From NCBI GenBank assembly GCA_020635725.1, contig JACJZF010000001.1, forward strand, positions 505,947 through 569,946: a DNA stretch of 64,000 nucleotides, written 5' to 3'. The notes under the pieces were generated by a model. That model did not search any database. It was not told the origin of the DNA and saw only the letters and a program-made list of their open reading frames with translations. Of this stretch, positions 41,736-64,000 are shown in pieces. The stretch's first letter is position 1; every line of letters starts with the position of its first letter. Position numbers and translations under genes: made by a program. Source of the stretch: Flavobacteriales bacterium (GTDB taxonomy: Bacteria; Bacteroidota; Bacteroidia; Flavobacteriales_F; PHOS-HE28).

Positions 41736-41796
41736 GCCGACGAAAGTACCTGCCCGGCTTGCACGGCAAAGGCATGCTCGCCAGCTTGCGCCACCC

Positions 41797-48900: not shown

Positions 48901-51900
48901 CCGCCCTACGGTTATGTATGGGCGCCTGCTCCCGGCGGCGGCCAAGGAACGCCCGATGCGGTTGACCTCTGCCCGGGCAACTACACGGTGCAGGTGACCG
49001 ATGCGGCAGGCTGCGACACGCTCATCGCATTCGTGATCAACGATCCGCCGCCGATCACCGTGGATCTGGAGACCACGCCGGCGAGCTGCGGTGGGGCATG
49101 CGACGCAACAGCCACGGCCACGGTTACCGGCGGCGTGCAGCCCTACACCTACGATTGGCAACCAGCGCCGGGCGGCGGGCAAGGAACGCCCAACGCCACG
49201 GGCCTCTGCCCAGGAGCATACGTGCTCACGGTCTCCGATGCGAACGGATGCACGGTGGATCTGCCCTTCACCATCAGCACGCCATCGGGGATCGATGCCC
49301 AATTCACCTCCACACCAGCGAGCTGCGGGAACAATTGCGACGGCACGATCAATGTGGTGGCGAGCGGCGGGATCCAACCCTATACGTGGACCTGGTCGCC
49401 GGAGCCGGGCGCGGGGCAGGGCACGCCGAATGTGAGCGGATTGTGCCCCGGCACCTACACGCTGCAGATCACCGATGCCGCGCAATGCGATACCGTGATC
49501 CAGGTGCTCATCACCTCGCCGCCGCCCATTGTCCCGAACGGCAGCTCCACCGATGAGACCTGCAACGGACCATGTGACGGCACCGCTACGGTGAATCCCT
49601 CGGGCGGGCAGCCGCCGTTCAGCTTCGTCTGGAATCCCGCGCCACCTGTGGGCCAGGGCACCAACAGCGCATCGCTCCTGTGCCCGGGCCTGTGGAGCGT
49701 GACCATCACCGATGCGATCGGCTGCGACACCACCATCACCCTGGAGGTGATGCCCAAGGACCCCATCGTCGATGGCTTGGTATGGACCAACGCCACCTGC
49801 CCGAACGCCTGCGACGGCACGGCCAGCGTGAACCCCACAGGCGGCATTCCTCCGATCACCGATATCCTGTGGATTCCTGATCCCCCCGTCGGACAGGGCA
49901 CTCCGAACGTGAGCGGCCTCTGCCTCGGGTCGTGGGAAGTGCGCGTATTCGACTCGGTGGGCTGCTTCAGTTCCACCACCTTCTTCGTGAGCGCGCCGCC
50001 GCCTTTCCAGAGCGGCTTGGTGACCACCCCGGAGACCTGCGACGGACCATGCACGGGCACCGCTACCGTCACGCCCTCGGGCGGCACGGGCAGCATCGGG
50101 GTGTTCTGGGATCCGCCTCCTGGTGGCGGTCAGGGCACCACGGCGGCCACTGGTCTTTGCGCCGGCATCACCTACAGTGTCACGCTCACCGATGACAGCG
50201 GATGCGATAGCACCTTCACGTTCACCATTGATCCGTTCGCGGCTATCGTGCCCAATAGCAGCAGCACGCCGGTGAGCTGCTTCAACGTGTGCGATGGCAC
50301 CGCAATGGTGAGCCCTACTGGTGGAGTTGGGCCGTATACCTACAGCTGGTCTCCCGAGCCTGGTGGCGGGCAGAACACGCCGCAGGCAACGGGCCTGTGC
50401 GCAGGCATTGCCACGGTTACCATCACCGACCTCAACGGATGCTCGATCGAAGCGGAGATCCTGATCGATGGGCCGCAGCCGATCCTGGACAATGCCACGG
50501 TGGAAGCGATCACCTGCGCGGGCACCTGCGATGGTTCGGTCACGCTCGCGGTCACCGGCGGTGTCGCCCCCTACACCTATCAGTGGACACCGGTGCCGCC
50601 CAACGGTCAGGGCCAGCCAACGGCGACCTCGCTCTGCCCCGGTAATTACACGGTGGTCGTCACCGATGCGGCCGGCTGTGCAGCGAGCTTCAGCTACGAC
50701 CTGTCCGCGCCGCCTCCCTTGGTGCTCTCGCTCACCCTCACGCCGAGCGAATGCCAGAACTGCATCGGCGCGGCATCGGTCTCGATCAATGGTGGCGCGT
50801 TGCCCTATGGCATCGAATGGCTTGGCCCTGGTGGTGCGGTCATCGGCACGGACCCGGACATCATCGATCTGTGCGCAGGGCTGTACAGCGTGCGGGTCAC
50901 CGATGGCAACGGTTGCATCGCACAGCAGGCCGTGGTGATCACGGATTCCGATGGCGAGGCGATCACCACCACCGATGGCACCACCGGCTGCCCGAACACC
51001 TGCGACGGCGCTGTGAGCGTGAGCTTCACCTGTTCCGATCCGCCCTGCGTGATCGCTTGGAGCGACGCGCTGGGCAATGATCTCGGCCAGAGCGGCACTG
51101 CGTTGAGTGGCCTCTGCCCCGGCGACTACCTCGTGAGCGTGACGAATGGCTCGGGCTGCCTGAGCATCGATACGGCAACGGTGGTGGCGCCGCCGCCGAC
51201 CACCTTGCTCATCAGCAGTTCGCCCGTGAGCTGCGCCGGTGCATGCGATGGCGTGGCCACCGTGGGGGTCAGCGGCGGGATACCGCCGTACCAATTGACG
51301 TGGACACCAGCACCCGGCGGCGGTCAAGGCACGCCGCAGGCCACCGGGCTCTGTGCCGGAGTGTACGAGGTGCTCATCAGCGATGACGGCGGATGTGATA
51401 CCACCGCGCAGGTCTTGATCACGGAGCCTGGCCCCTTGGTCACCGGCGCGATCGTGCTCGGTGTCTCCTGCTCGGGGCAATGCGACGGCAGCGTCACGCT
51501 GGCCATCGATGGCGGCACACCGCCCTATGCGGTGATCTGGTCGCCTGTTCCGCCGAGCGGGCAGGGCGTGCCGGGCGCGTTCGGCCTGTGCGCCGGCGAT
51601 TGGACCGCGACCATCACCGATGCCAACGGCTGCACCTTGGTGGAGACCTATGCCATCGCGGAGCCGCAGCCCTTGCTCGTGAGTGTGAACACCACGCCGA
51701 GCACCTGCCCCAATTGCGACGGCCAGGCCGAAGCGATCATCAGCGGCGGTACCCAGCGCTACGACGTGAGCTGGACCTTGGGCGCCACGGTGGTGAGCAC
51801 CGATCCGCTGGCTACCGATCTCTGCGGCGGACTGTACCGGCTCACGGTGAGCGACGCCAACGGCTGCTCGGTGACGCAGGCCGTGCAAGTGCCCGATGGC

Positions 51901-54900
51901 AACGCGGAAGTGCTGACGCCGCAGAACGGGCAGACCACCTGCGCGAATAATTGCGATGGCACCGTGGGCGTGAGCTTCACCTGCACTTCGCCGGCGTGCA
52001 ACGTGGTGTGGACCGATAGTGACGGCAATGTCATCGCCACCAACACCCCGACCGTATCGAACCTGTGCGTGGGCGTGTACACCGCTCAGGTCACCAACGG
52101 GAGCGGCTGCGTGAGCTTCATCGATGCGGAGGTGCTGCCATCGCAATCGATCATCCCCAACCTGAGCAGCACGCCTGCGAGCTGCTTCGGGCTCTGCGAT
52201 GGAACGGCCACGGTGAATCCGGTAGGCCTCACGGGCACGCCGACCTTCACGTGGTCGCCCGAGCCCGGTGGCGGGCAGAACACGGCGCAGGCCACGGGGC
52301 TGTGCGTCGGTGTGTACACCGTGCTGATCGCCGATGCGACCGGATGCGATACGCTCGTGCAGGTGCTCATCACCGGTCCGGATGAGATCGCGATCGATGG
52401 CATCGTTCAGGATGTGACATGCCAAGGCGCGTGCGATGGCGCGGTGGATGCCGTGGTTTCCGGCGGAACGGCACCTTATCTCTATGACTGGTCGCCGGCG
52501 CCCGCTCTCGGCCAGGGCACGCCCAACCCGCGCGGGTTCTGCGCCGGCCCGGTGACACTGATCATCACCGATGCGAACGGATGCACCAGCCAGCAGGTCT
52601 TCGACATCGCCGAGCCTGCCTTGCTCCAGGCCGCGTTGAGCACCACGCAGAGCCAATGCAACATCTGCAATGGCACGGCCTCGGTCGCGGTGAGCGGCGG
52701 CACGCAACCCTACTTCGTCACGTGGTACCACGGCGCGAGCGTATTGGGCACCGGCGAGAGCATCGCGGGCCTCTGCGCGGGCTTCTACACGGTCAACATC
52801 ACCGATTCCGCGCTCTGCTCGCTGGTGCAAACCGTTGTGATCAGCGACATCGACGGTGAGGAGCTCACCGCGACGGATGATGTCACCAGCTGCCCTGGCG
52901 CATGCGATGGCGAGGTGAGCGTGTCGTTCAACTGCCAGGATCCGCCTTGCCAGGTGGCGTGGTTCGACGCGGGCGGCAACGATCTGAATGAGCCCGGCAA
53001 CGTGCTGGGCGCCCTGTGCGCGGGCTTGTACTTCGCGCAGGTCACCAATGCATCGGGCTGCGTCAGCATCGATACGGCCTTTGTCACCGAGCCCGATCCG
53101 ATCGTGCCCAACCTGAGCACCACGCCCGTTACGTGCGCGGGTCTCTGCGATGGCACGGCTACCGTTGGCCCATCCGGCGGCATGCCCGGCTACACCTTCT
53201 TGTGGAGCCCCGGCGGCGAGGACACGCCGCAGGTCACCGGGCTGTGCGCGGGGACTTACAGTGTCACCATCGGTGACATGGCAGGCTGCTCCATCGTGGT
53301 GGATGTGCTGATCACCGGCCCGCAGCCGCTCACGGCCAGCGAGACCATCTCGCCCATCACCTGCAACGGCGCATGCGATGGCGCCATCACCGTGGTGCCC
53401 GGCGGAGGAACGCAGCCATACACCTATAGCTGGTCACCGCCGCCACCGGGCGATCCCACGCAGCCCACGGTCATTGATCTGTGCGCAGGTGATTGGTCTG
53501 TGACCATCACCGATGCCAACGGCTGCGACACCACCATCACCTACACCTTGGTCGATCCGGAAGTGCTGGATGCCCAGCTCAATACCACGGACAATGCGTG
53601 CTTCGGCGATTGCCAGGGCACTGCGGCGCTCACCCTCAGCGGGGGCGTGCCTCCGTATGGCATCACCTGGTTCAACAGCCTGGGCGCGGTGATCTCGCAA
53701 GACATGACCGATATCGCCGATCTGTGCGTGGACGATTACAGCGTGGAAGTGGTGGATGCCAACGGATGCACCGTGACCCTGCCCTTCAGCATCGGGCAGG
53801 GCCCGGCGATCGAGGCCAACCTCACCTTCACCGGCGAGACGTGCTTCGGCCCCTGCGACGGCACGGCATCGGTCTCTCCGAGCGGCGGCATCGGCACCTT
53901 CATCATCGAATGGCGTGATGCCGATGGCAATCTGATCGCGCTCGATGTGACCGATGTGACCGGCCTGTGCGCCGGGGACCATTCCGTTACCATCATCGAT
54001 CAGCTGGGGTGCGACAGCACGTATGCCTTCACCATATTGCCGTACACCGCGATCGCCGATGGCGCCACCGTGACCGATGTGCGGTGCAATGGTGCCTGCG
54101 ATGGAAGCATCGTCTTGAGCGCCACCGGTGGCGTTGGACCGTTGAGCTATGATTGGAACCCGGTTCCGCCCAATGGCCAGGGCAATGCGGAGGCTACCGA
54201 CCTCTGCCCCGGCACGTACAGCGTGACGATCACCGATGGCGCGGGCTGCGGCGCTTCCTTCTCCTACACCATCAATGAGCCCAGCGCGATCACGGTAACG
54301 GTTGATGCGGTGACCGATGCGAGCTGCGCGAACGCAATGGATGGCGCGATCAGCATCACCGCTGCCGGCGGCGTCCCCGACCTGGGCTTCGCTTGGTCTG
54401 GGCCAGGCGGATTCAGCTCGTCGGCGGAGGACCTAACGGGTATCGCGCCAGGCGCCTATGTGCTCACGGTGACCGATGGCAACAACTGCACGCTCACGGT
54501 GCCGATCACGGTGAACGCGCTCTCTACCGTTCAGGCCGATGCCGGTGCCGATGTGACCGAGTGCGCCGGTGTGGACATCACCTTGGATGGAAGCCTGAGC
54601 ATCGGTGCGCTCACCTATCAGTGGCTCGATGACCAAGGCAACGAAGTGGGCACCGCGCCGACCGTGGCACTATCGGGGTTGACCGCAGGCGTCTACGTGT
54701 ACACGCTCAATGTGGCCGACGGACCCTGCACTTCCACGGACCAGGTGACCGTGACGGTGCTGGACCTGCCACTGGCAGACGCGGGCAATGACCAGACGAT
54801 CTTCCTAGGCGATTTGGTGACCTTGGGCGGCGCGCCCACCGCGCCTTCGGGCTCCACCATCTACTGGCAGCCCGATTCACTGGTGAGCGACGCCGCGAGC

Positions 54901-55275
54901 GCGAATCCCACCACCTCGCCGCTGGTCACCACCTGGTACAGTGTGCTGATCACCTCGCCCAACGGCTGCGTGTCACTCGATTCCGTGCTCGTTACCGTGG
55001 TGCCCGAAGTGGTGATCCCCACAGGGTTCACGCCGAACGGCGACGGCTGGAACGAGACCTGGCAGATCGACTTCATTGACCTCTTCCCCGAATGCGAGGT
55101 CGAGGTCTACAACCGCTGGGGCGACCAGCTCTTCCGCAGCGTGGGTTATCAGAAGCCTTGGGATGGCAAGTACAACGGCGGCTTCGTGCCGGTGGGCACG
55201 TACTACTACGTGATCCAGCTCAACGATCCCAGGTTCCCAGAAGCATACACCGGCCCGCTCACCGTGATCCGCTGA
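45904..55275 (+). CDS. SprB-like giant cell-surface adhesin (3123 aa) with a T9SS type-B C-terminal domain
   Basis: More than 30 SprB-type repeats (C.G.CDG.A.V..SGG..PYTY.W.P.PGGGQGT..ATGLCAG.Y.V.ITDANGC). C-terminal FTPNGDGWNETWQI...VYNRWGDQLF...GTYYYVIQ. Confidence 0.85.
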   Translation: MRTNALYALTIAALLSHTASAQHAGGRTLHWVGGSGHWSDAEHWSLQAQGAGGAAVPGLADNAVIAADAELTLVIDGSARCHDLQVDARAGFVRVQGDERAELRVLGDWRMQGSIHWDLRGRVRLMGDAAGLVVDTRGIPLAGQLTFDGAGSWTLMSDLLLREGDITFKEGTVHSAGGLLTARTLCSEGRAPKQLMAGSGLVQLAQRPEAGVLERTVNAQDAILTVGGEPTDWPQRPVMERDARDVNVCATGAGQTPFTATTSALSNYSGFNVRCRGECNATVTVNVAGGIGPFTYSWLFGGPATQTWTTACGGPQIVVVTDQGQGVSCGVTLNVTEPSPLGVIFFGQGTPPTCADVCNGTRTALAIGGVTPHTYNWNNGAGSGSSFNQLCAGVNSLRITDANNCTFDTTFTFNLQPISPGLTFTSNSCFGDCNGTATVNPTGGTAPILATWSPAPGGGQGTYNATGLCAGNYTVLLSDANGCDTTVAFIITQPPPILPNALVTNATCFGACDGAATVTPSGSPGPFDYNWTPSPGGGQGTGSATGLCAGNYTVLITDQVSGCDTLVPILIDAPPSIDIQGTVTDASCSNTCDGEIGIVVNGAVPPFTITWSPAPPSGQGTQAISGLCPGDWSCTFTNSNGCDTTVTFTVNAPPPLVASVQTTDVTCAGECDGMATCPAVTGGTAPYAFLWSPAPGSGQGTDTAQDLCAGNYTVLIYDANGCDTTIAFVINEPPPLQVVPSQTNVTCGGQCDGTASVLVSGGVPTYTYQWTPEPGGGQGTANATGLCAGAYSVLITDANGCTFTQPFIILDAVALQISLQVLPASCPGDCDGSAGVIVTGGQAPYSYNWQPAPGGGQGTPNATGLCAQAYSLTITDFLGCDSTIAFTVPAPPPIMVSSTLNEPTCSGDCDGTIDLVVSGGNGAFTYSWSPPPGSGQGTANAGGLCAGSYQVVIASGACDTTLTFQLTAPPPIDAALTTTDPSCAGACDATASLSVSGGTPPYGYVWAPAPGGGQGTPDAVDLCPGNYTVQVTDAAGCDTLIAFVINDPPPITVDLETTPASCGGACDATATATVTGGVQPYTYDWQPAPGGGQGTPNATGLCPGAYVLTVSDANGCTVDLPFTISTPSGIDAQFTSTPASCGNNCDGTINVVASGGIQPYTWTWSPEPGAGQGTPNVSGLCPGTYTLQITDAAQCDTVIQVLITSPPPIVPNGSSTDETCNGPCDGTATVNPSGGQPPFSFVWNPAPPVGQGTNSASLLCPGLWSVTITDAIGCDTTITLEVMPKDPIVDGLVWTNATCPNACDGTASVNPTGGIPPITDILWIPDPPVGQGTPNVSGLCLGSWEVRVFDSVGCFSSTTFFVSAPPPFQSGLVTTPETCDGPCTGTATVTPSGGTGSIGVFWDPPPGGGQGTTAATGLCAGITYSVTLTDDSGCDSTFTFTIDPFAAIVPNSSSTPVSCFNVCDGTAMVSPTGGVGPYTYSWSPEPGGGQNTPQATGLCAGIATVTITDLNGCSIEAEILIDGPQPILDNATVEAITCAGTCDGSVTLAVTGGVAPYTYQWTPVPPNGQGQPTATSLCPGNYTVVVTDAAGCAASFSYDLSAPPPLVLSLTLTPSECQNCIGAASVSINGGALPYGIEWLGPGGAVIGTDPDIIDLCAGLYSVRVTDGNGCIAQQAVVITDSDGEAITTTDGTTGCPNTCDGAVSVSFTCSDPPCVIAWSDALGNDLGQSGTALSGLCPGDYLVSVTNGSGCLSIDTATVVAPPPTTLLISSSPVSCAGACDGVATVGVSGGIPPYQLTWTPAPGGGQGTPQATGLCAGVYEVLISDDGGCDTTAQVLITEPGPLVTGAIVLGVSCSGQCDGSVTLAIDGGTPPYAVIWSPVPPSGQGVPGAFGLCAGDWTATITDANGCTLVETYAIAEPQPLLVSVNTTPSTCPNCDGQAEAIISGGTQRYDVSWTLGATVVSTDPLATDLCGGLYRLTVSDANGCSVTQAVQVPDGNAEVLTPQNGQTTCANNCDGTVGVSFTCTSPACNVVWTDSDGNVIATNTPTVSNLCVGVYTAQVTNGSGCVSFIDAEVLPSQSIIPNLSSTPASCFGLCDGTATVNPVGLTGTPTFTWSPEPGGGQNTAQATGLCVGVYTVLIADATGCDTLVQVLITGPDEIAIDGIVQDVTCQGACDGAVDAVVSGGTAPYLYDWSPAPALGQGTPNPRGFCAGPVTLIITDANGCTSQQVFDIAEPALLQAALSTTQSQCNICNGTASVAVSGGTQPYFVTWYHGASVLGTGESIAGLCAGFYTVNITDSALCSLVQTVVISDIDGEELTATDDVTSCPGACDGEVSVSFNCQDPPCQVAWFDAGGNDLNEPGNVLGALCAGLYFAQVTNASGCVSIDTAFVTEPDPIVPNLSTTPVTCAGLCDGTATVGPSGGMPGYTFLWSPGGEDTPQVTGLCAGTYSVTIGDMAGCSIVVDVLITGPQPLTASETISPITCNGACDGAITVVPGGGTQPYTYSWSPPPPGDPTQPTVIDLCAGDWSVTITDANGCDTTITYTLVDPEVLDAQLNTTDNACFGDCQGTAALTLSGGVPPYGITWFNSLGAVISQDMTDIADLCVDDYSVEVVDANGCTVTLPFSIGQGPAIEANLTFTGETCFGPCDGTASVSPSGGIGTFIIEWRDADGNLIALDVTDVTGLCAGDHSVTIIDQLGCDSTYAFTILPYTAIADGATVTDVRCNGACDGSIVLSATGGVGPLSYDWNPVPPNGQGNAEATDLCPGTYSVTITDGAGCGASFSYTINEPSAITVTVDAVTDASCANAMDGAISITAAGGVPDLGFAWSGPGGFSSSAEDLTGIAPGAYVLTVTDGNNCTLTVPITVNALSTVQADAGADVTECAGVDITLDGSLSIGALTYQWLDDQGNEVGTAPTVALSGLTAGVYVYTLNVADGPCTSTDQVTVTVLDLPLADAGNDQTIFLGDLVTLGGAPTAPSGSTIYWQPDSLVSDAASANPTTSPLVTTWYSVLITSPNGCVSLDSVLVTVVPEVVIPTGFTPNGDGWNETWQIDFIDLFPECEVEVYNRWGDQLFRSVGYQKPWDGKYNGGFVPVGTYYYVIQLNDPRFPEAYTGPLTVIR

Positions 55276-55279
55276 AGCC

Positions 55280-56212
55280 ATGAAGAACATCCGCCTCCTT
55301 CTTCCGCTCGTCGCGATGCTCTGGGCGCTCCCCGGCCGGGCGCAGCAGTTGCCGCAGCTCACGCAATACGTCGCCAACGACTACCTCTTCAACCAGGCCG
55401 TAGCCGGCAGCCGTCCATTCTTCGAGCTGCGCAGCGGGCATCGCTACCAATGGGTGGGCGTGCAGGATGCGCCGCGCACCTTCACGCTTAGCGGCTCCAC
55501 CCCGCTGGGCGCCAAGATGGGCGTGGGCGGATACCTCTTCACCGACATCGTGGGCCCCACGCGCCGCACCGGCATCCAATTCTCCTGGGCCTATCACCTG
55601 CGCATCACGGGCGATGTGAAGCTCTCCATGGCGCTCTCCGGCGGACTGCTTCAGTTCCTGATCGATGGGTCGAAGATCCAGTTGCACGACCAGGGCGACC
55701 CCACGCTGGACAATCAGCTGCGCGGCGAGCTGAAGCCCGATGCCACCTTCTCTTTCCTCTTCTATCACCCCCGGTGGTGGGTGGGGGCCGCTGCCCCGCA
55801 GTTGCTCAACAACGAAGTGGTCTTCCTGCACGAGAACACCGGCACGCTCAGCCGCATGGACCGCCATTACTACGCCATGGGCGGCTATCGCCTGCCCATC
55901 GGCGCCGACCTGAAGCTGGAGCCCTCGTTCATGCTGAAGTACGTGGACCCCGTGCCCATGAAGGTCGACATCAACCTCACCGCCCGCTACAAGGATGCGT
56001 TCTGGATCGGCGCCGGATACCGCACCAACGATGCCTGGTGCGCCATGCTCGGGTACTGGCACAAGCAGCAGTTCCAGTTCGGCTATTCCTACGACGTGAT
56101 CACGAGCAACCTGCGCAATTACAGCACCGGTACGCATGAGGTGATGCTGGCCATCACCATCGGCCGCGGCCGGGCCGAAGCGGCTGCCGCGGCCTCGCCC
56201 ACGACGCCGTAA
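55280..56212 (+). CDS. PorP/SprF-family T9SS outer-membrane protein (second copy)
   Basis: QQLPQLTQYVANDYLFNQAVAG. Starts 5 nt after the SprB-like stop. Confidence 0.8.
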   Translation: MKNIRLLLPLVAMLWALPGRAQQLPQLTQYVANDYLFNQAVAGSRPFFELRSGHRYQWVGVQDAPRTFTLSGSTPLGAKMGVGGYLFTDIVGPTRRTGIQFSWAYHLRITGDVKLSMALSGGLLQFLIDGSKIQLHDQGDPTLDNQLRGELKPDATFSFLFYHPRWWVGAAAPQLLNNEVVFLHENTGTLSRMDRHYYAMGGYRLPIGADLKLEPSFMLKYVDPVPMKVDINLTARYKDAFWIGAGYRTNDAWCAMLGYWHKQQFQFGYSYDVITSNLRNYSTGTHEVMLAITIGRGRAEAAAAASPTTP

Positions 56213-56334: not shown

Positions 56335-59300
56335 GTGGTGCAAACATCCTCCTCTGCGTCATTCCCCAAGCTGTTGCGCCTTGGCCTGCTCCTGAACGGG
56401 TTGCTGGTAGGCGCGCTCGGCTTCGCGCAGGTGAATGCCTGCACCGGGCTGTTCCTGGACTCCGGCGGTGCGGCAGGCAATTACGGGAACAACGAGGACC
56501 AGACGGTCACGATCTGTCCGGAGGGCGGTTCGGGTTCCGGCCCGAGCACCTCGGTACGCTTCACGGACTTCGCCATAGCGGCCGGGCCGGGCGATACGTT
56601 GTGGGTGCATGATGGCTCGGATCTGCTCGCGCCGATTATTGCCACGGGCACCTCGGCCAGCTCCCTCGTGGGCAATACCTACACCAGCTCCGATCCGTCG
56701 GGCTGCCTCACCTTCCGGTGGAAGAGCAATGCCGCCGGTGTAGCCGCCGGCTGGTTCGCGCGGATCGTGACCACGCCGCACCCGGGCGACAATTCCAGCG
56801 CCACCCTCTGCTCCGCGGCAGCGCCGGTCTCGCTCTTCTCCTTGCTCTCCGGCAACCCCGATCCCGGCGGTTCATGGAAGGACCCCTTGGGAGCGCCGCA
56901 TGGCGATACGTTCAATCCGGCGGTGGACCCGGGAGGCAATTGGGTGTACACGCATTCCGGCCCATCGCCGTGCTCACCGGCTTCCGCTACGCTCACACTC
57001 ACCAAGGTGCAGGCACCGGACCCCGGTACCAACAGCACATTGACCCTGTGCGCCACCGATGGACCAACGAGCCTGTTCAGCGCCTTGGGCGGGAGCCCCG
57101 ATCCGGGCGGCAGTTGGACCGCGCCCGGCGGTGGCGCGCATAGCGGAACATTCAATCCGGCCACTGATCCGGCAGGCTTGTACACCTACACGGTAACCGG
57201 CACCTCGCCCTGCCTGTCTGCTTCGGCCACCGTCACGGTCACGGTGAATGCCCCGCCCAACGCCGGTAATGACGCCACCACCACCGTCTGCAGCAATGGC
57301 GCGCCCTTCAGCCTGTTCGCCTTGCTCACCGGCTCCCCGAGCGTCTCCGGCGCATGGACCGGACCGGGCGGAGGCCCCGTGAGCGGCACCTATACCCCCG
57401 GCACCAGCACGCCCGGCGTCTATACCTATACGGTCGCCGGCCTGCTGCCTTGTGCTCCCGATGCGGCAACCGTCACGGTAACGCAGGTGGCTGCGCCCAA
57501 TGCCGGCACCTCCGCGTCGACTACGGTATGCAGCGACGATGCGCCTTTCTCGATGCGCTCGTTATTGGGCGGCAGCCCTGCGGCTGGCGGAACGTGGGTT
57601 GGTCCTGGCGGCCCCCACGCCGATCAGTTCAATCCGGCAGTGGATCCAGCTGGGGTGTACACCTATACCGTTGCTGGTACGCCGCCTTGCGCGAATGCCA
57701 CCGCCACCTTGACCATCACGGTGCGACCAGCGCCGAATGCCGGCACCGATGGGGCCGTCACCCTGTGCAGCACCGATGGGGTCTTCCAGCTCTTCGGCGC
57801 GCTCGGTGGCTCTCCGGATGTGGGCGGAACGTGGCGTGATCCGGCCAATCAGATCCACTCCGGCAGTTTCACCCCGGGCACCAGCACGCCGGGCATCTAC
57901 ACCTATACCGTTACCGGCCTCTCGCCTTGCGACCCGGATGTATCGCAGGTGACCGTGACCGTGAACGCCGCGCCCAATGCCGGTATCGGAGCTACCGTGA
58001 CCCGTTGCTCCAATGCCGCGAACGTGAACCTGTTCAATCAGCTCGGCGGTTCACCGAACGCCGGTGGCACATGGACCGGGCCTTCGGGGGCGCACAGCAA
58101 CATCTTCGATCCCGATGTGGATCCGGCAGGCGCGTACACGTACACGGTCGTAGGACTCACGCCCTGCGCGAATGCACAGGCCACGATCACCATGGTGGTG
58201 GTGCAGGAGCCGGATGCGGGCACCAACGGCTCCATCACGGTGTGTGGCAACGATGCGCCTTTCAGCCTCTTCGGCGTGTTGGGCGGTACTCCGGACGGAA
58301 ACGGCACATGGACCGCTCCGGGCGGTGGCGCCTCCACCGGGACCTTCACGCCTGGAACGAGCACGTCGGGGGTTTACACCTACACGGTCGCGGGAACACC
58401 GCCTTGCGCGAATGATCAGGCCACGGTGACCGTTTCCGTGGTGGCCCCACCGAACCCCGGGACCAATGGAAGCCTGACCGTGTGCAGCAACAATGCCGCG
58501 GTCGATCTCTTCACGCTGCTCGGCGGCACGCCTCAAGCGGGTGGCACGTGGACCCGGCCCAACGGCACGGCGCACACCGGCACCTATCTGCCGGCAACGG
58601 AACCGAGCGGCAACTACACCTATACCGTTGCCGGCACCCCGCCCTGCGCCTCGCGCAGCGCCGTGGTGCAGGTCACTCGGGTGATCGCGCCGAACGCAGG
58701 AATCAATGGCAGCATCACCGTGTGCAGCACCAACGCGGCCTTCGACATGATCACCGTGCTGGGTGGCTCGCCGGGCGGAGGCGGCGCGTGGTTCAATGCG
58801 GCACTTGCCTCGGTCCCCGCGGTGTTCACCCCGGGCACCACCGTCCCCGGCAACTATGCGTACGTGCTTCAAGGCACCGCGCCCTGCGCCAACGATACCG
58901 GCTTCGCCACGATCAATGTGAACACCGCGCCGAATGCGGGGCAGAATGCGTCGATCACCGTATGCAGCAGCGACGCGCCTTTCCAGCTCATCGATGAGCT
59001 GAACGGCACACCCGATGCGGGCGGAACCTGGACCCGGCCCAACGGCACCGCGCACAACGGCACCTTCACGCCGGGCACCTCCGCGCAGGGTGGCTACACC
59101 TATACCGTGGCAGGCCTCACGCCGTGCGTGAATGCCAGCGCCGTGGTGGTGGTGAGCGTGAACACCCAGCCCAACGCGGGCATCAGCGACAGTTTCACAC
59201 GATGCAGCACCAGTGGTCCCGTGGACCTCTTCGATGAGCTCAATGGTTCGCCGAATCCGGGGGGCACTTGGGTCGGTCCTTCGGGCCCGAGTTCAGGAAT

Positions 59301-62300
59301 CTTCCAGCCGGGCACTTCCACCCCGGGCGTGTACACCTACACTGTTGTTGGCATCGCGCCGTGCACCAACGCAACGGCCACCATCACGGCCAACGTGAAC
59401 CAAGCGCCCAATGCCGGCGGCGATGGTGCAGTGACCATTTGCCAAGGGACGGCATCGATCGATCTCTTCACCGTGCTCACCGGCACCTTCGACCTGAATG
59501 GAACGTGGCAGGACGAGGACAACACCGGCCAGCTTTCCGGCAGCTTCTTCAATACCTCCACCATGGGTCCTGGCACCTATGAGTTCCGGTATGAGGTGCC
59601 GGCCAACGGCGCGTGCCAAGCGGATCATGCGCATGTGGAAGTGACCATCGTGGCGTTGCTGGAGGCTGGTTCCAACAGCAGCACGAACACGTGCAGCAGC
59701 AACACGCAGGTGAATCTCTTCAACCTGTTGGGCGGCAATCCGCAGCCCGGTGGCACCTGGATCGACCTCAGTGGAACCGGCGCTTTGAGCGGGCAGCTCT
59801 TCAACGCGCAGCAGGCGGGGCCCGGGAGCTATCAGTTCCGTTACCTCTTGACCGGCACGATCGGCTGCAGCTCGGATTCGGCGCAGGTGACGCTCTCGGT
59901 GATCGCCGCGCCCAACGCGGGCGGCAACGGCAGCGCGATCACGTGCAGCAACGCGGGCCCGTTCAACATGTTCCCCTTCCTCAGCGGTACGCCGCAAGGG
60001 GGCGGATCATGGTTCGCGGGCGCTCCGAACGGAAGCCCGCACGCGGCCACCTATGATCCGGCCACCGACAATCCCGGCGATTTCTACTACAAGGTGAACG
60101 GCGTGTCGCCGTGCGCGAGCGCCTTTGCCAAGGTGACCGTGACTGAGGTGCAGGCGCCGTGGGCGGGCAATGATGCGAACACCACGGTGTGCTCCAACGG
60201 CGCGCCGTTCAGCATGACGGCGCTGCTCACCGGCAACCCGAACGCGGGCGGTACCTGGTACCTCAACAACCAGAACCATGGCGATCTCTTCGTGCCCGGG
60301 CAGGATGTGCAGGGCGTGTACGAGTACCGCGTGACCGGGCAGGCCCCGTGCACGCCCGATGCCGCTTTCCTCACGGTGTCCGTTACCACGGCTGCCAACG
60401 CGGGCTGCAGCGGCTCGGTCACGGTATGCGATAACGCCTTGCCCTTCGTGCTCTACAACGTGCTCACCTGCAACCCGCAGAGCAACGGCGCCTGGTTGGG
60501 CCCTGACCTGATGCCGCACAACGGCACGTATCAACCTGGCGTGTCGCAGGTCGGCGACTACCTGTACATCGTGCAGGGCGATGCGCAGTGCGCGAGCGAC
60601 ACCAGCGTGGTAACCGTGTTCGAGACTCCGGCGGCCAACGCGGGCTGCCCGGGCGCAGGGTCCTTCTGCTCGAACAACGCGCCGGTGAATCTCTTCACGC
60701 TCTTGGGTTGTTCCCCGGATCCCTTTGGCACGTGGACGGGTCCGGGGAATCAGCCATCCGATGGTTTCTTCAATCCGGCCACCGGCACATCGGGCACCTA
60801 TACCTACTCGGTCACGAACGGATGCGGTTCGGCGAGCGCCACGGTGGTGGTAACGCTGAATCAGCAGCCCAATGCCGGGTGCAACCGCACGATCACCCGC
60901 TGCACCAACAGCCAGGCCTTCGCCATGATCGATGAGCTGGGCTGCAACCCGCAATCGGGTGGGGTGTGGACCGGGCCCTTGCCTGCGACAACGGTCATGA
61001 ACGGGGTCTTCATCCCCGGCGTGACGGCCCCGGGCACGTATCGCTACCGCATCACCGGGCAAGGCGCTTGCGCGAATGCCTCCGCGCAACTGACGATCAA
61101 TGTGAACACGATGCCCAATGCAGGCATCGACAACGATACGCTGCTGTGCGCCACTTCCGGACAGGTGAACCTCTTCCCGCTACTTGGTCCCACGGCCATG
61201 GTCGGTGGCAGCTGGTTCTTCAATGGGATCACGCCGCACACGGGCATCGTGAACCCGCAGACCGACGCCACCGGCAACTATGTGTACCGGCTCACCGGCC
61301 AATCGCCCTGCGCCAACGATGAGGCCATCGTTTACGTGCAGATCTCGCAACCGCCCAACGCCGGCTTCGATGGCCTCGCTCAGGTCTGCAGCGATGATGG
61401 TGCATTCCCGCTCATCGGATACTTGGGCGGATCGCCCATGCTGAATGGCAACTGGACCAATCCTTCGGGCGCCAATCACAACGGACTGTACGTACCCGCC
61501 ATCGATGGTCCCGGCCTGTACAAGTACAAGCTCCCCGGCAATGGCGGCTGCGGACCGGACAGCTCGTATGTGACCGTGCTCGAGTACGATGCAGTGGAGG
61601 CCGGCACCGGCAGCGTAACGGTGGTGTGCAGCAATTCGGCTGCTTTCCCGCTGTTCAGCTTGATCACCGGCGGGCAGACTGGCGGTACCTGGACCGACCC
61701 ATTCGGTAACGCCTTCACCGGCACCTTCATACCAGGTGTCTCTGAGCCGGGTGGGTACACCTACCGCCTGCAGGGCACAGCACCCTGCGAGAACGATTCC
61801 GCCCTGGTCACGGTATTCGTGAACGATGCCGCCGATGCGGGCATCAGCACACTGGCCTCGGTATGCTCCAGTTCCGATGCGGTGACATTGATCTCGCTGC
61901 TCGGTGGCACGCCCGACAACAACGGCACGTGGACCTACAATGGCGACCCCACCGATCCCATCTTCGATCCAGATGTGGACGATCCTGGCGTGTACATGTA
62001 TACCGTGGAGGGCGCAACGCCTTGCACCACGGCTACGGCACAAGTGGTGGTGACCATTACCCAGCAGGCATCGGCGGGTGAGGACGGCTCGCTGACGGCT
62101 TGTGTGGGAGCCGATGCGGTGCAGCTCTTCGACGGGCTCGGAGGATCGCCGGACCCCGGCGGTGTCTGGTCCAACAACTGCGGCTTGGGCGGGCTCAACG
62201 GCGGCATCTTCGACGCATCGGCGCTGGCTGCAGGAAGCAGCTGCACCTTCACCTACACGCAGCCCGCCGATGGCCCATGCGATGCGGTGAGCGCGCAGGT

Positions 62301-64000
62301 CACCTTGGAGATCGTAGATGCCTTGGATGCCGGCGCGGACAGCAGTTCCGCGGCTTGCCAGGGCCAGGTGGTCGATCTTTACGCGTCCATCGGCGGCGCT
62401 CCGCAGCCGGGCGGCTTCTGGATCAACGTGGACAATGCGCCCGGCGTGTTCGGCGGCTTCTTCAACACCGCGGCCGTGAGCGCGGCGGGCAGCGTGTGGC
62501 ACTTCGATTACGTGCTGCCTGGCAGCGCGGCGTGCGTATCGGATACCGCCCATGTGACCGTGGAGGTGCTTGAAGGGCCCTTCGCCGGTTGCGATGGAAC
62601 GCTCTCGCTGTGCAGCATCTCGCCACCGGTGATGCTGGCCACGGCGCAGAGCTGCGGGCCGAATGCGAGCGGCTTCTGGCTGAATCCAGCGGGCGGCTCG
62701 CACTCCGGCAGCTTCATCGCCGCTACGGATCAGGCCGGAGCCTACAAGTTCGTGGTGGAGGGCCTGGGCGCTTGCCCGAGCGATACGGCCGTGGTTACCG
62801 TGAACCTTACGCAGGCGGCCAACGCGGGTACCGATGCCGCATTGAGCATCTGCTCCGATGACCTGCCCGCGGACATGTTCGCCTTGCTCGGCCCGAACGC
62901 GCAAGCCGGAGGCAACTGGACCTACAACCCGGGCGGCCCGCCGATCCCGCACAGCAACGTGTACAATCCGGCGGTCGATCTGCAGGGTTCCTACGTGTAC
63001 ACCGTGCAGGGCAATTTCCCTTGCCCGAGCCGCTCGGCGATCGTCACGGTAACCGAGTCGCCGGCCCCGAATGCCGGATGCGACAGCGAAGTGTCCGTGT
63101 GCTCGAGCGATGGCCCCATCAACATGCGCCTGGCGCTGGGCTGCAACGCGCAGGCCGGCGGTACTTGGGTGTACGTGACCGGAGGTGACACGCCGCACGG
63201 GAACTTCTTCGATCCGGCGGTGGACCTGCCCGGTGATTACCGGTACACGGTCACGGGTCAGGCACCTTGCGAACCGGCCACCGCCCTGCTCACCGTGAGC
63301 TTGATCACGGCGGGCAATGCAGGCACCACCACCACCGTGCAGGCTTGCGTGACCCAGACTTCCGTGGACCTGCTCGCCGAACTGGGCGCGCAACCAGGAG
63401 GCACGTGGACCGATCAGAACAACTCACAGGCCCTCACGGGCAACATCTTCGACCCAAGCGTAGCGGGCAATGGCACATGGCCCTTCCTGTACACGGTCCT
63501 GGGCAGCGGGCCATGCCCCACGGTGAGCGCCACGGTCACGGTGCAGGTCGGCACGGGCAGCAGCGCGGGCAACGACACCAGCATCACCATCTGTGGCAGC
63601 ATCACCGACCTCGACCTCTTCACCCAGCTGGGCGGCAATCCCACGGCAGGCGGAAGCTGGCTCGACATCAATGGCAATGGCGCGCTCTCTGCGAGCGGCG
63701 TGCTCAATGCCACCCTGCTCCCCGTGGGTGGCACACAGCCCTTCGGATACACAGTGGTCGACCCAGGTTGCGGCGATGTGAGCAGCGTGATCCTGGTGAC
63801 CACCACGGCCTACCCGCAACCCGGATCCTCCGCGAGCATCACGCTATGCAGCGATGGGGCACCGGTGGACCTCTTCACTCAGCTGGGCGGCGCACCGGAG
63901 AGCGGCGGCACCTGGCGCGATCCGGATGGCGCGATCCACTCGAGCACCTTCGACCCGGCGACCGATTCCCAAGGAGGCTACTCCTACACGGTCGTTGGCA
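56335..64000 (+). CDS. Giant secreted protein (partial; continues beyond the window). N-terminal CUB-like domain followed by at least 28 tandem two-cysteine repeats of about 80 aa.
   Basis: Frame 1 is open from the GTG at about 56335 to the window end, which is why it has no entry in the ORF track. Signal peptide VQTSSSASFPKLLRLGLLLNGLLVGALGFAQVNA. CUB-like segment CTGLFLDSGG...TICPEGG...VRFTDFAIAAGPGDTLWVHDG...CLTFRWKSN. Repeat unit APNAG.D...T.CS....F.LF..LGGSP..GG.W..P.G..HSG.F.P.T..PG.YTYTV.G..PCA...A.VTVTV. Confidence 0.7.
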   Translation, partial: MVQTSSSASFPKLLRLGLLLNGLLVGALGFAQVNACTGLFLDSGGAAGNYGNNEDQTVTICPEGGSGSGPSTSVRFTDFAIAAGPGDTLWVHDGSDLLAPIIATGTSASSLVGNTYTSSDPSGCLTFRWKSNAAGVAAGWFARIVTTPHPGDNSSATLCSAAAPVSLFSLLSGNPDPGGSWKDPLGAPHGDTFNPAVDPGGNWVYTHSGPSPCSPASATLTLTKVQAPDPGTNSTLTLCATDGPTSLFSALGGSPDPGGSWTAPGGGAHSGTFNPATDPAGLYTYTVTGTSPCLSASATVTVTVNAPPNAGNDATTTVCSNGAPFSLFALLTGSPSVSGAWTGPGGGPVSGTYTPGTSTPGVYTYTVAGLLPCAPDAATVTVTQVAAPNAGTSASTTVCSDDAPFSMRSLLGGSPAAGGTWVGPGGPHADQFNPAVDPAGVYTYTVAGTPPCANATATLTITVRPAPNAGTDGAVTLCSTDGVFQLFGALGGSPDVGGTWRDPANQIHSGSFTPGTSTPGIYTYTVTGLSPCDPDVSQVTVTVNAAPNAGIGATVTRCSNAANVNLFNQLGGSPNAGGTWTGPSGAHSNIFDPDVDPAGAYTYTVVGLTPCANAQATITMVVVQEPDAGTNGSITVCGNDAPFSLFGVLGGTPDGNGTWTAPGGGASTGTFTPGTSTSGVYTYTVAGTPPCANDQATVTVSVVAPPNPGTNGSLTVCSNNAAVDLFTLLGGTPQAGGTWTRPNGTAHTGTYLPATEPSGNYTYTVAGTPPCASRSAVVQVTRVIAPNAGINGSITVCSTNAAFDMITVLGGSPGGGGAWFNAALASVPAVFTPGTTVPGNYAYVLQGTAPCANDTGFATINVNTAPNAGQNASITVCSSDAPFQLIDELNGTPDAGGTWTRPNGTAHNGTFTPGTSAQGGYTYTVAGLTPCVNASAVVVVSVNTQPNAGISDSFTRCSTSGPVDLFDELNGSPNPGGTWVGPSGPSSGIFQPGTSTPGVYTYTVVGIAPCTNATATITANVNQAPNAGGDGAVTICQGTASIDLFTVLTGTFDLNGTWQDEDNTGQLSGSFFNTSTMGPGTYEFRYEVPANGACQADHAHVEVTIVALLEAGSNSSTNTCSSNTQVNLFNLLGGNPQPGGTWIDLSGTGALSGQLFNAQQAGPGSYQFRYLLTGTIGCSSDSAQVTLSVIAAPNAGGNGSAITCSNAGPFNMFPFLSGTPQGGGSWFAGAPNGSPHAATYDPATDNPGDFYYKVNGVSPCASAFAKVTVTEVQAPWAGNDANTTVCSNGAPFSMTALLTGNPNAGGTWYLNNQNHGDLFVPGQDVQGVYEYRVTGQAPCTPDAAFLTVSVTTAANAGCSGSVTVCDNALPFVLYNVLTCNPQSNGAWLGPDLMPHNGTYQPGVSQVGDYLYIVQGDAQCASDTSVVTVFETPAANAGCPGAGSFCSNNAPVNLFTLLGCSPDPFGTWTGPGNQPSDGFFNPATGTSGTYTYSVTNGCGSASATVVVTLNQQPNAGCNRTITRCTNSQAFAMIDELGCNPQSGGVWTGPLPATTVMNGVFIPGVTAPGTYRYRITGQGACANASAQLTINVNTMPNAGIDNDTLLCATSGQVNLFPLLGPTAMVGGSWFFNGITPHTGIVNPQTDATGNYVYRLTGQSPCANDEAIVYVQISQPPNAGFDGLAQVCSDDGAFPLIGYLGGSPMLNGNWTNPSGANHNGLYVPAIDGPGLYKYKLPGNGGCGPDSSYVTVLEYDAVEAGTGSVTVVCSNSAAFPLFSLITGGQTGGTWTDPFGNAFTGTFIPGVSEPGGYTYRLQGTAPCENDSALVTVFVNDAADAGISTLASVCSSSDAVTLISLLGGTPDNNGTWTYNGDPTDPIFDPDVDDPGVYMYTVEGATPCTTATAQVVVTITQQASAGEDGSLTACVGADAVQLFDGLGGSPDPGGVWSNNCGLGGLNGGIFDASALAAGSSCTFTYTQPADGPCDAVSAQVTLEIVDALDAGADSSSAACQGQVVDLYASIGGAPQPGGFWINVDNAPGVFGGFFNTAAVSAAGSVWHFDYVLPGSAACVSDTAHVTVEVLEGPFAGCDGTLSLCSISPPVMLATAQSCGPNASGFWLNPAGGSHSGSFIAATDQAGAYKFVVEGLGACPSDTAVVTVNLTQAANAGTDAALSICSDDLPADMFALLGPNAQAGGNWTYNPGGPPIPHSNVYNPAVDLQGSYVYTVQGNFPCPSRSAIVTVTESPAPNAGCDSEVSVCSSDGPINMRLALGCNAQAGGTWVYVTGGDTPHGNFFDPAVDLPGDYRYTVTGQAPCEPATALLTVSLITAGNAGTTTTVQACVTQTSVDLLAELGAQPGGTWTDQNNSQALTGNIFDPSVAGNGTWPFLYTVLGSGPCPTVSATVTVQVGTGSSAGNDTSITICGSITDLDLFTQLGGNPTAGGSWLDINGNGALSASGVLNATLLPVGGTQPFGYTVVDPGCGDVSSVILVTTTAYPQPGSSASITLCSDGAPVDLFTQLGGAPESGGTWRDPDGAIHSSTFDPATDSQGGYSYTVVG
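57017..64000 (+). repeat. Tandem coding repeat array of about 240 bp (at least 28 units) inside the partial giant gene
   Basis: The recurring ccNaaYgcSggc (PNAG) motif appears at about 240-bp spacing from about 57.0 kb to the window end. Confidence 0.7.

Follow-up and report, generated by a model that had tools for sequence, protein, structure and literature searches.

The locus examined here raises the question of what kind of protein is encoded by a giant, incomplete reading frame that lies next to genes for an SprB-repeat protein and a PorP/SprF-family shuttle, and how such a protein would be exported and held at the cell surface. The window, i.e. the whole stretch of DNA that was analyzed (64,000 nucleotides), originates from a member of the Flavobacteriales that is uncultured and rich in GC (about 64%). 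Translation of frame 1 of the forward strand gave 2,555 codons without a stop, running to the window end, and the nearest upstream in-frame stop is located at 56137-56139. The frame is missing from the program-made ORF list because it runs past the end of the window. The genes and signals that frame the question are:

45904..55275, + strand: SprB-repeat protein of 3,123 aa with a type B T9SS sorting domain, the first gene of a five-gene module
55280..56212, + strand: PorP/SprF-family outer-membrane shuttle gene (Pfam PorP_SprF, E = 2e-74; TIGR03519, 244 bits)
56335..64000, + strand: partial CDS of a giant CUB and Ig-like-repeat T9SS surface protein, recognized by its stop-free frame and its orthologues; 3′ end outside the window
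56335..56427, + strand: probable Sec signal peptide (aa 1-31; GTG start; ...LLVGALGFA/Q), read from the sequence

An earlier note on this DNA had described a frame open for more than 7.6 kb with a signal peptide at its head, and both statements agree with our analysis. The N-terminus carries K12 and R15, then a hydrophobic stretch ending in ...GFA/Q, and the orthologues share this layout, with basic residues, a hydrophobic stretch and A-Q placed directly before the CUB domain. This Sec-like arrangement suggests that the protein probably has the N-terminal signal peptide that T9SS type B substrates require.

Most of the frame is occupied by a repeat array. An HMM made from the repeats delimited 30 consecutive units, the last one cut by the window end:

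56773..63999, + strand: array of Ig-like repeats, 29 complete and 1 truncated (aa 147-2555; 78-85 aa each)
Starts of units 1-15 (aa): 147, 227, 307, 387, 466, 546, 625, 705, 785, 865, 945, 1024, 1108, 1192, 1274
Starts of units 16-30 (aa): 1353, 1433, 1511, 1593, 1673, 1753, 1832, 1911, 1996, 2081, 2161, 2244, 2326, 2408, 2493

The units were matched with E values between 5e-19 and 2e-34, far beyond chance, and the HMM matched nothing else in a six-frame translation of the window. Six columns of the window repeat are invariant (G5, C13, G33, W35, G55 and C67), and all 29 complete units hold either 2 or 4 cysteines, with C6 and C27 as the additional pair in units 16-18, 25 and 27. The same features mark the wider family, for which 1,754 instances from 201 proteins were aligned: G5 is conserved in 100%, C13 in 99.4%, C67 in 98.6% and W35 in 97.9% of the instances, and 96% of them have exactly two cysteines. 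From this conservation and the cysteine parity we infer one C13-C67 disulfide per repeat. The earlier note had counted at least 28 copies of an approximately 80-aa two-cysteine repeat, with the cysteines about 60 residues apart. The copy number and the conserved pair of cysteines stand, whereas the spacing between them is 53-59 residues, slightly less than proposed.

The unit period corresponds to 234-255 bp. Between-unit identity averages 39% for the protein (range 24-64%) and 50% for the DNA (range 39-66%), and Tandem Repeats Finder (minimum score 30) did not detect a 240-bp tandem array, the copies having diverged too far, so that the period exists at the level of the protein. This is the moderately conserved period of about 240 bp that had been noticed before. 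The repeat units pair with the units of the same ordinal number in the orthologues of other species, and the copy number is kept at 29-32, as expected from an array that had been characterized as old but constrained. Recent tandem amplification was considered and rejected, since identity between the units averages only 39% and the units have positional orthologues in other species.

Is this repeat a known domain? Searches of Pfam-A with the whole protein and with 29 units taken singly (E <= 10) returned no significant match, nor did those with the head and with a piece of three units. The best matches, each to a single unit, were to Big_9 (E = 0.043), K319L-like PKD (E = 0.045) and Big_12 (E = 0.11). 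Neither HYR (PF02494) nor Ig_7 (PF19081) was matched at E <= 10 by the whole protein or by any of the 29 units, and for PKD (PF00801, PF18911, PF22352) the match was that of 1/29 units to K319L-like PKD (E = 0.045). An NCBIfam scan of the protein gave nothing above cut-off, a PDB sequence search with the whole protein yielded nothing relevant, and the repeat had no significant Pfam match in 13 other proteins that carry it. The sub-threshold Pfam and NCBIfam noise included DUF3727, MtrF-like_dom-III and invert_tail. No confident match to HYR, PKD or Big having been found, the description of the repeat as unrecognized holds for the curated libraries tested; it is a genuine gap in these libraries, in the sense of being absent from Pfam-A and NCBIfam. 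The family is large: clustering at 50% identity gives at least 6,216 clusters of proteins with the repeat, and 3,224 of these were found at E <= 1e-10. Cultivable Marivirga species are among the bacteria that encode such proteins.

The predicted structure of the repeat has very high confidence and resembles Ig domains, so that on the model the fold is an Ig-like β-sandwich and hence not a new one. The alternative that has to be taken most seriously is that the repeat belongs, as a divergent offshoot, to one of the curated Ig-type families (Ig_7/PF19081, PKD or HYR) and was left unrecognized only through the thresholds of the HMMs. Of these, Ig_7 (“Ig-like domain CHU_C associated”) likewise has about 80 aa, occurs in Bacteroidota T9SS proteins and shows one cysteine near its start, a tryptophan in the middle and another cysteine near its end. 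An hhalign comparison of the repeat profile with 110 Ig_7 instances spans 65-70 columns with both cysteines and the tryptophan in register (P = 0.0018), but its probability is only about 15%. The two signatures also differ: AG at positions 4-5, LGG-P--GGtW and G-YtYtv in the repeat, WY...YYa...gCeS in Ig_7. Both domain types occur together in some proteins, but there the Pfam Ig_7 segments are not the repeat segments. In the PDB, the repeat profile gave weak matches to the PKD of KIAA0319L (E = 0.0039, C-terminal half only) and to a two-Cys domain of Anabaena All3314 (E = 0.011), and sub-threshold K319L-like_PKD matches were present in the related proteins P0045, P0046 and P0068. PKD domains carry a WxFGDG-type motif, however, and this motif is absent from the repeat; 0/29 units were significant against any Pfam model, and HYR was never seen. 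We consider such a derivation possible, with the balance of these observations against it.

The repeat is also distinct from that of the upstream giant, as had been claimed. The neighbour contains Pfam SprB in 22 stretches (E = 5.5e-176) together with CHU_C, and scores 67 bits with TIGR04131, whereas the window protein contains none (Pfam PF13573), and the repeat HMM was not significant on the neighbour, its best domain reaching 2 bits. An identity of the giant as an SprB-repeat protein was rejected on these grounds.

Between the signal peptide and the array a single further domain could be distinguished:

56431..56772, + strand: CUB domain (aa 33-146), assigned by profile match, Foldseek and the Cys pair C36/C61

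The window head alone gave no Pfam CUB match at E <= 0.1. A profile of 21 homologous heads, in turn, matched CUB domains in the PDB, i.e. those of cubilin (E = 6.7e-19), PCPE-1 (E = 5.5e-9) and neuropilin-2 (E = 1.7e-7), as well as the CUBs of TSG-6 and MASP, and PF00431 was matched by 6/21 of the head homologues (best E = 1.8e-11). In the AF2 model of the head (pLDDT 81), the top 50 Foldseek matches in the PDB were all CUB domains, with TM(query) scores of 0.52-0.72 and E values down to 1e-4. The CUB-like head noticed earlier is thus, by its family profile and its predicted fold, a true CUB domain. It shares with the animal CUBs (cubilin, PCPE-1, neuropilin, MASP/C1r/C1s; PF00431) the first canonical disulfide pair (C8/C33 of the head alignment, C36/C61 of the protein) and the D-x-L-x-I-x-DG strand, in which D59 is invariant among the head homologues. 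It differs from them in being bacterial, in occurring as a single N-terminal copy on a T9SS fibre, in lacking the second canonical disulfide pair and in having a nearly invariant extra Cys (“SGCLTF”); the window head taken alone also falls below the Pfam threshold for the family. One of the acidic residues expected at the canonical Ca2+-binding Tyr/Glu/Asp/Asp site of CUB domains is apparently Asn in the window (“KSNAAG”), and most homologues have “SD” at this place. No report of CUB domains in T9SS adhesins was found in the literature.

The remainder of the gene was approached through its orthologues, which were located with a seven-sequence alignment of CUB heads. They were found in more than 20 genomes, again with an SprB-like giant upstream. 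Their CUB heads are 46-65% identical to that of the window (36-42% in more distant CUB-bearing relatives), and the window protein is collinear with a full-length orthologue, P0045 (2,846 aa), at 41% identity over 2,540 aa. Full orthologues have 2,665-2,947 aa and combine 29-32 repeats with a constant spacer of about 85 aa and a type B sorting domain. A CHU_C-like tail was recognized in 19 full-length loci; P0045 and P0046 (2,844 aa) end in CHU_C (E = 1e-25 and 8e-24, respectively), and the tail of the orthologue at locus L005 scores 43 bits with TIGR04131, the type B sorting domain model (cut-off 35).

Genes downstream of the orthologues follow a constant order. A PorP/SprF gene lies directly after the giant in loci L001, L003-L011, L014-L022, L029 and L034 (TIGR03519, 283 bits in L005), and a PorE-like ORF comes after this PorP in at least 19 loci, that is, in every orthologous locus reaching far enough. 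At L001 the order is PorP, giant, PorP and then a 735-aa protein with CarboxypepD_reg, PD40 and OmpA domains, which matches NF052230 (T9SS_PorE) with E = 2e-112 and 376 bits, under the strict 600-bit cut-off of that model. Proteins of the PorE type are marked by TPR, β-propeller, CRD and OmpA_C parts. The genes compose a module of five (SprB-like giant, PorP/SprF, CUB-repeat giant, second PorP/SprF, PorE-like), present in at least 19 species-level Flavobacteriales genome bins, which are all 19 whose locus extends far enough. By comparison with these orthologues the window stops about 200-300 aa before the C-terminus of the giant, and its own sorting domain, downstream PorP/SprF gene and PorE-like gene would lie past the window end. 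The PorP/SprF gene at 55280..56212 is assigned by its position to the upstream SprB-like protein and not to the CUB-repeat giant, because a cognate shuttle is encoded directly downstream of its substrate (PMC12618676).

Taken together, we propose, with a probability of roughly 0.7, that the protein forms a fibre on the cell surface, which PorP and PorE fasten to the cell wall and which has a CUB binding tip about 120 nm out. The frame would represent the N-terminal ~90% of a fibre protein of about 2,750-2,900 aa. This would cross the inner membrane by the Sec pathway, and some 30 Ig-like domains would then fold in the periplasm, each with its C13-C67 disulfide. Export by the T9SS would depend on a type B C-terminal sorting domain located just past the window end. 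The giant would be received by the cognate PorP/SprF-family outer-membrane barrel encoded directly downstream, and a peptidoglycan-binding, OmpA-type PorE-like protein would link this barrel to the cell wall. Since the chain would be held at its C-terminus, its tandem Ig-like domains would make up a beads-on-a-string stalk, for which about 4 nm per domain gives an estimated length of about 120 nm, and the single N-terminal CUB would be a ligand-binding head at the far tip. Such a fibre may serve as a stationary adhesin or capture fibre.

The proposed anchoring follows an analogy with two known systems. PorE, PorP and PG1035 of Porphyromonas gingivalis form a complex, SprF binds SprB, and the authors of that work proposed two routes for type B cargo, PorP alone for cargo that moves and attachment to the wall via PorP-PorE for cargo that does not (PMC9143113). 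In Flavobacterium johnsoniae, Fjoh_3952, with genes for PorP-like Fjoh_3951 and PorE-like Fjoh_3950 downstream, gave static foci only (PMC12618676). The orthologues of the giant resemble both systems in having a type B domain followed by PorP/SprF and PorE-like genes; the likeness concerns the sorting domain and the gene order. A passenger of CUB and 30 repeats is defined for the present family only. Immobile foci or a PorP-PorE complex are known for Fjoh_3952 and PG1035 only (PMC12618676, PMC9143113). Static anchoring of the giant through PorP-PorE is predicted here from a single tested substrate of F. johnsoniae and a single complex of P. gingivalis.

The same neighbourhood could be read as that of a mobile, SprB-type gliding adhesin, which PorP/SprF hands over to the gliding track and which drives movement over substrata. 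Like SprB of F. johnsoniae with its partner SprF, the giant is predicted to be a very large, repetitive type B T9SS filament with a cognate PorP/SprF. Its gene adjoins that of an SprB-repeat giant and sits between PorP/SprF genes, and its orthologues share the type B sorting domain with SprB; moreover, SprB shares its mobility with several other type B substrates of F. johnsoniae (PMC12618676). A difference lies downstream. The sprB-sprF locus has no PorE-like gene (PMC9143113), whereas the orthologues of the giant have one, placed after the cognate PorP in every orthologous locus reaching far enough; in F. johnsoniae no such gene accompanies the mobile substrates, and the only substrate tested that does have one is static. 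The absence of significant similarity between the repeat HMM and the SprB-repeat neighbour also speaks against this reading. We regard mobility of the giant as unlikely. The SprB-like neighbour itself, having PorP/SprF and no PorE, is presumably mobile.

A PorP-PorE arrangement is also found with GhpA, the grappling hook protein of Aureispira sp. CCB-QB1, and the giant could accordingly be imagined as a multi-stranded appendage in which copies lie side by side to make a rigid hook of fixed length on PorP/PorE, catching prey cells, flagella or particles. GhpA is a Bacteroidota T9SS substrate with a Sec signal, an Ig-like stalk with disulfides and a C-terminal sorting domain, and a PorP homologue and a PorE homologue follow its gene, in the order ghpA-ghpB (PorP)-ghpC (PorE) shared with the orthologous operons. 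Conservation of 29-32 domains across species is what would be expected where length matters. Among the solved structures of GhpA (9g8b, 9flu, 9flx, 9flv, 9fls, 9fly), stem fragments 9g8b, 9flu, 9flx, 9flv and 9fls appeared in the Foldseek PDB top ten for the repeat model, with 19-28% identity over 86-88 alignment columns, making GhpA the closest solved bacterial structure. These scores are marginal, however (E = 6e-3 to 3e-2, TM-scores of only 0.46-0.55), and PDB sequence searches with the repeat profile (E <= 10) and the whole protein (E <= 1) returned no GhpA chain. In GhpA, residues 26-1402 constitute the hook and the stem is heptameric and hollow (bioRxiv 10.1101/2024.01.29.577165). The protein has 5,898 aa with a hook module of ~1,400 aa and 52 stem domains, and is twice as long as the giant, to which it has no detectable sequence similarity; the N-terminus of the giant is one 115-aa CUB, directly followed by the array of about 30 domains, and contains no hook module. 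According to its description, GhpA has disulfides between Ig-like domains that lie close together; the cysteine parity of the giant points instead to a pair within each domain. The GhpA stem is heavily glycosylated, while the giant shows no enrichment of the Bacteroidota O-glycosylation motif D-S/T-[AILVMT] (6 sites vs about 11 expected). A GhpA-like hook thus appears very doubtful.

In its boldest form this idea would give rigid T9SS appendages of fixed length a second family, independent of the grappling hook but analogous to it, in which bundled wall-anchored chains present a ring of CUBs for the capture of particles, prey or partner cells, alongside the mobile SprB-like adhesin, in uncultured Flavobacteriales of activated sludge and soil. 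We mention it as a long shot; if it were true, bacterial surface “ruler” fibres of a new class would be built from the 80-aa two-Cys repeat.

Finally, the frame might be no real gene, having arisen by chance or from repetitive GC-rich DNA, given that the window has 64-66% GC and contains long spurious antisense ORFs (e.g. 61180-63393 on the - strand, 737 aa), but this is ruled out for practical purposes by 2,555 stop-free codons, 30 units that strongly keep their structural residues, confident structure models, collinear orthologues with preserved synteny in more than 20 species and the 6,216 related protein clusters.

With the wall-anchored fibre as the preferred reading, the CUB-repeat giant joins an already known kind of T9SS surface protein, and the general picture of how T9SS adhesins work is unchanged by it. 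Its significance lies elsewhere. A large and well-defined repeat family has no entry in Pfam-A or NCBIfam, and as a consequence thousands of giant Bacteroidota surface proteins are annotated by their sorting domain only or called “hypothetical”; with the alignment and the very confident model presented here, a new family of the Ig clan can be defined. The five-gene module sets a PorP-only SprB-like giant beside a giant with PorP and PorE, a natural comparison that bears on a topical issue of T9SS biology, how type B domains and their shuttles choose between a mobile and a wall-anchored fate. The placement of a bacterial CUB domain at the outer end of a stalk that would be about 120 nm long also raises the tractable question of which ligands such fibres may bind.

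From position 56335 onwards, plus-strand frame 1 runs through 2,555 codons to the window end without a stop, in agreement with the giant open frame described in the earlier note. The nearest upstream in-frame stop is at 56137-56139, and the ORF is absent from the ORF list solely because its reading frame passes the window end. A repeat HMM, seeded with nine obvious units and then iterated on the window protein, revealed 30 contiguous units (aa 147-2555, DNA 56773-63999; per-unit E-values 5e-19 to 2e-34), of which 29 are complete and the last is clipped by the window end. The units recur with a period of 78-85 aa, so the monotonous array of about 80-aa units was correctly recognized. Six positions are invariant among the aligned units (G5, C13, G33, W35, G55 and C67) and Y59 is nearly so. 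The conserved Cys pair seen previously is present, with a measured spacing of 53-59 residues instead of the proposed 60 or so. Identity between units is moderate, as had been stated, with means of 39% (range 24-64%) for protein and 50% (39-66%) for DNA; because of this divergence the 240-bp array escaped Tandem Repeats Finder. The six-frame translation of the window contains no other match to the repeat HMM. The neighbouring SprB-repeat protein gives no significant score, which upholds the distinction drawn between the two repeats.

Cysteines occur in twos (23 complete units) or fours (six units), and five of the six four-Cys units share the same added pair. In a survey of 1,754 full-length repeat instances from 201 proteins, C13 was present in 99.4% and C67 in 98.6%, and 96% had exactly two Cys; extra Cys are rare in this wider family (less than 2% at any extra column). 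Because the cysteines come in twos or fours and C13 and C67 are nearly universal, each unit is predicted to contain one intradomain disulfide. Four-Cys units are found at matching ordinal positions in the nearest orthologues (loci L003 and L005). The unit variants distinguished within the array, the Cys pairs by their positions, are as follows:

59404-59907 and 62065-62574 (examples), plus strand: long unit sub-type of 82-85 aa (units 12, 13, 23, 24, 28 and 29), in which 'tGaLsG' is inserted behind the Trp strand and the Y-x-Y strand is altered
60391-61110, 62575-62814 and 63064-63309, plus strand: two extra Cys, at positions 6 and 27, never one without the other (units 16, 17, 18, 25 and 27)
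62065-62319, plus strand: extra Cys pair at positions 39 and 60 (unit 23)

The composition of the protein is extreme (Lys 0.4%, Arg 1.0%, Glu 1.2%, His 0.9%, Asp 5.2%), with Gly, Thr, Ala, Ser and Pro constituting 53% of residues. It is an acidic fibre nearly free of Lys and Arg, possibly an adaptation against trypsin-like proteases. Three very long ORFs antisense to the two giant genes are in all likelihood side effects of Gly/Thr/Ala-rich coding sequence with high GC (65%), not genes:

46798-52830, minus strand: 2,010 aa
61180-63393, minus strand: 737 aa
60007-61089, minus strand: 360 aa

No unit or combination of units from the window significantly matches Pfam-A or NCBIfam, and the repeat is indeed unrecognized, as the earlier note held. 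At E ≤ 10, the 29 units gave ten scattered Pfam matches, each to a single unit; the best were Big_9 (0.043) and a K319L-like PKD (0.045), and HYR was not among them. Thirteen other repeat-bearing proteins likewise lack a significant Pfam match on the repeat region. What does match significantly in them is chiefly a T9SS sorting domain (CHU_C or Por_Secre_tail); a PKD domain and a SprB repeat were also matched towards the C-terminal ends of two of these proteins. Modelled by AlphaFold with the other 28 window units as alignment, a single unit gives a very confident structure (pLDDT 97.5, pTM 0.85). Its Foldseek scores are marginal; AMIGO-1 aside, the best matches are five stem fragments of GhpA, the Aureispira grappling-hook protein (E 6e-3 to 3e-2, 19-28% identity), which is undetectable by sequence in searches with the repeat profile and the whole window protein. 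Some proteins carry, alongside the repeat, another two-Cys domain of 80 aa, Ig_7. Aligned profile to profile with 110 Pfam Ig_7 instances, the repeat has the two Cys and the Trp in register, though the probability is only 15% (P = 0.0018). A divergent Ig_7, PKD or HYR is unsupported at the family level and possible at that of the superfamily, where remote Ig/PKD kinship is plausible.

The repeat profile also weakly matches a two-Cys domain of All3314, a contractile-injection-system protein of the cyanobacterium Anabaena (PDB 7b5h chain AA; E = 0.011, 70 columns, both Cys aligned). This hints that the repeat domain may have relatives outside Bacteroidota.

When 1.84 billion representative proteins were searched exhaustively with the profile, 6,216 proved to carry the repeat at E ≤ 1e-3; the count falls to 3,224 for E ≤ 1e-10 and to 1,079 for E ≤ 1e-30. 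Many of these have 10-31 units. The named carriers are mainly from uncultured Flavobacteriales, and the repeat also occurs in Psychroserpens, Hanstruepera, Polaribacter and the Cytophagia genus Marivirga. Their source annotations are 'hypothetical' or derive only from the sorting domain.

The window head alone reaches no Pfam or NCBIfam model. Relatives sharing it were recovered by database searches, and an alignment of 21 homologous heads matches cubilin CUB domains (E = 6.7e-19) and the CUBs of PCPE-1, neuropilin-1, neuropilin-2, TSG-6 and MASP-2; six of the 21 individually pass Pfam CUB. The first 50 PDB matches of the AlphaFold model of the window head (pLDDT 81) are all CUB domains. From these profile, Pfam and structural matches the head, previously termed CUB-like, is a genuine, somewhat divergent CUB domain. 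Within the alignment, the first canonical CUB disulfide is kept (C36 and C61 of the window protein) and the second is missing. A third Cys of the window head, near-invariant among homologues (motif SGCLTF; Cys124, DNA 56704-56706), has no partner inside the domain.

A full-length relative of 2,846 aa, P0045, can be aligned collinearly with the window protein along 2,540 aa (41% identity, 2% gaps). This distant orthologue has a CHU_C domain at its C-terminus and likewise has long units at positions 12 and 13, aligned with those of the window. Scanning genomes for the head motif yielded 34 loci, nearly all in Flavobacteriales genome bins. An identical five-gene order was found in at least 19, i.e. 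in all 19 whose locus extends far enough:

Gene 1 (window 45904-55275, plus strand): SprB-like giant with CHU_C
Gene 2 (window 55280-56212, plus strand): PorP/SprF gene
Gene 3: CUB-repeat giant, 2,665-2,947 aa, 29-32 units
Gene 4: second PorP/SprF gene
Gene 5: PorE-like OmpA protein

The window holds genes 1 and 2 whole and most of gene 3; from orthologue lengths and module content, the full window gene should encode about 2,750-2,900 aa. The tail of the orthologue scores above the cut-off of the type B sorting domain model TIGR04131, and the genes that follow the giant match TIGR03519 (PorP family) and NF052230 (PorE; E = 2e-112). The last unit is always followed by a spacer of 83-87 aa, after which comes the sorting domain. 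This spacer is conserved, contains Cys, is unrelated to the repeat (e.g. L005, about 17850-18100, outside the window) and may be part of an extended targeting region.

Window units match those of closer orthologues best at the same ordinal position (24 of 29 in L003, with an offset of one; similarly in L005 and L007). Such matching indicates that the array predates these species and is not undergoing homogenization. Despite this age its length is kept at 29-32 units, and the description of the array as old and constrained was apt. The original observation was real and its interpretation correct.

Three genes lie immediately upstream of the module:

41734-43695, plus strand: 653-aa protein with signal peptide and PNGase F C-terminal domain (N-glycanase_C, E = 5e-11), directly preceding the adhesin cluster
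43964-44956, plus strand: third type B substrate, secreted, 330 aa, with CHU_C at the C-terminus (E = 8e-26)
44953-45891, plus strand: PorP/SprF gene of the 330-aa substrate, with a 4-nt overlap with the substrate stop codon

With this substrate/shuttle pair the window therefore has three consecutive type B cargo genes, the first two each followed by a PorP/SprF gene. The C-terminus of the 653-aa protein resembles a T9SS tail by eye, but a sorting domain was not detected.

Type B T9SS substrates require a cognate PorP/SprF shuttle encoded directly downstream, to which they remain bound at the surface. PorE binds PorP and also peptidoglycan (PMC9143113). Fjoh_3952, a type B substrate of F. johnsoniae, is followed by PorP-like and PorE-like genes, as are the orthologues of the window gene, and forms static foci only. 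The giant/PorP/PorE order of these orthologues is also that of the GhpA locus (bioRxiv 10.1101/2024.01.29.577165). By the logic of these precedents, the window protein would most likely be a wall-anchored, CUB-tipped fibre. It would be exported via Sec and then T9SS, with its C-terminus held on a wall-fixed PorP-PorE complex; its roughly 30 Ig-like domains would project about 120 nm (at our estimate of about 4 nm per domain) and carry the CUB domain, as a binding head, on their free end. The upstream SprB-like giant, with PorP but without PorE, would be the mobile partner. Of this scheme, the domain layout, the folds, the C-termini of the orthologues and the gene order are shown by the analysis, and the disulfides, fibre length, static anchoring and CUB-tip binding are inferred.

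A GhpA-like multi-chain hook is compatible with the operon and the conserved domain number, but the window protein has no hook module and no sequence similarity to GhpA. The PorE-like gene of the orthologous operons speaks against a mobile SprB-type adhesin. That the giant ORF is not a gene was excluded.

As a giant T9SS surface fibre, the window protein is an ordinary kind of object. It is built of an Ig-like domain family missed by curated libraries, carries a bacterial CUB domain at its tip and is encoded in a strikingly conserved two-adhesin locus. The useful outcomes are a new domain family that can be defined and what would be a natural pair of mobile and anchored adhesins.
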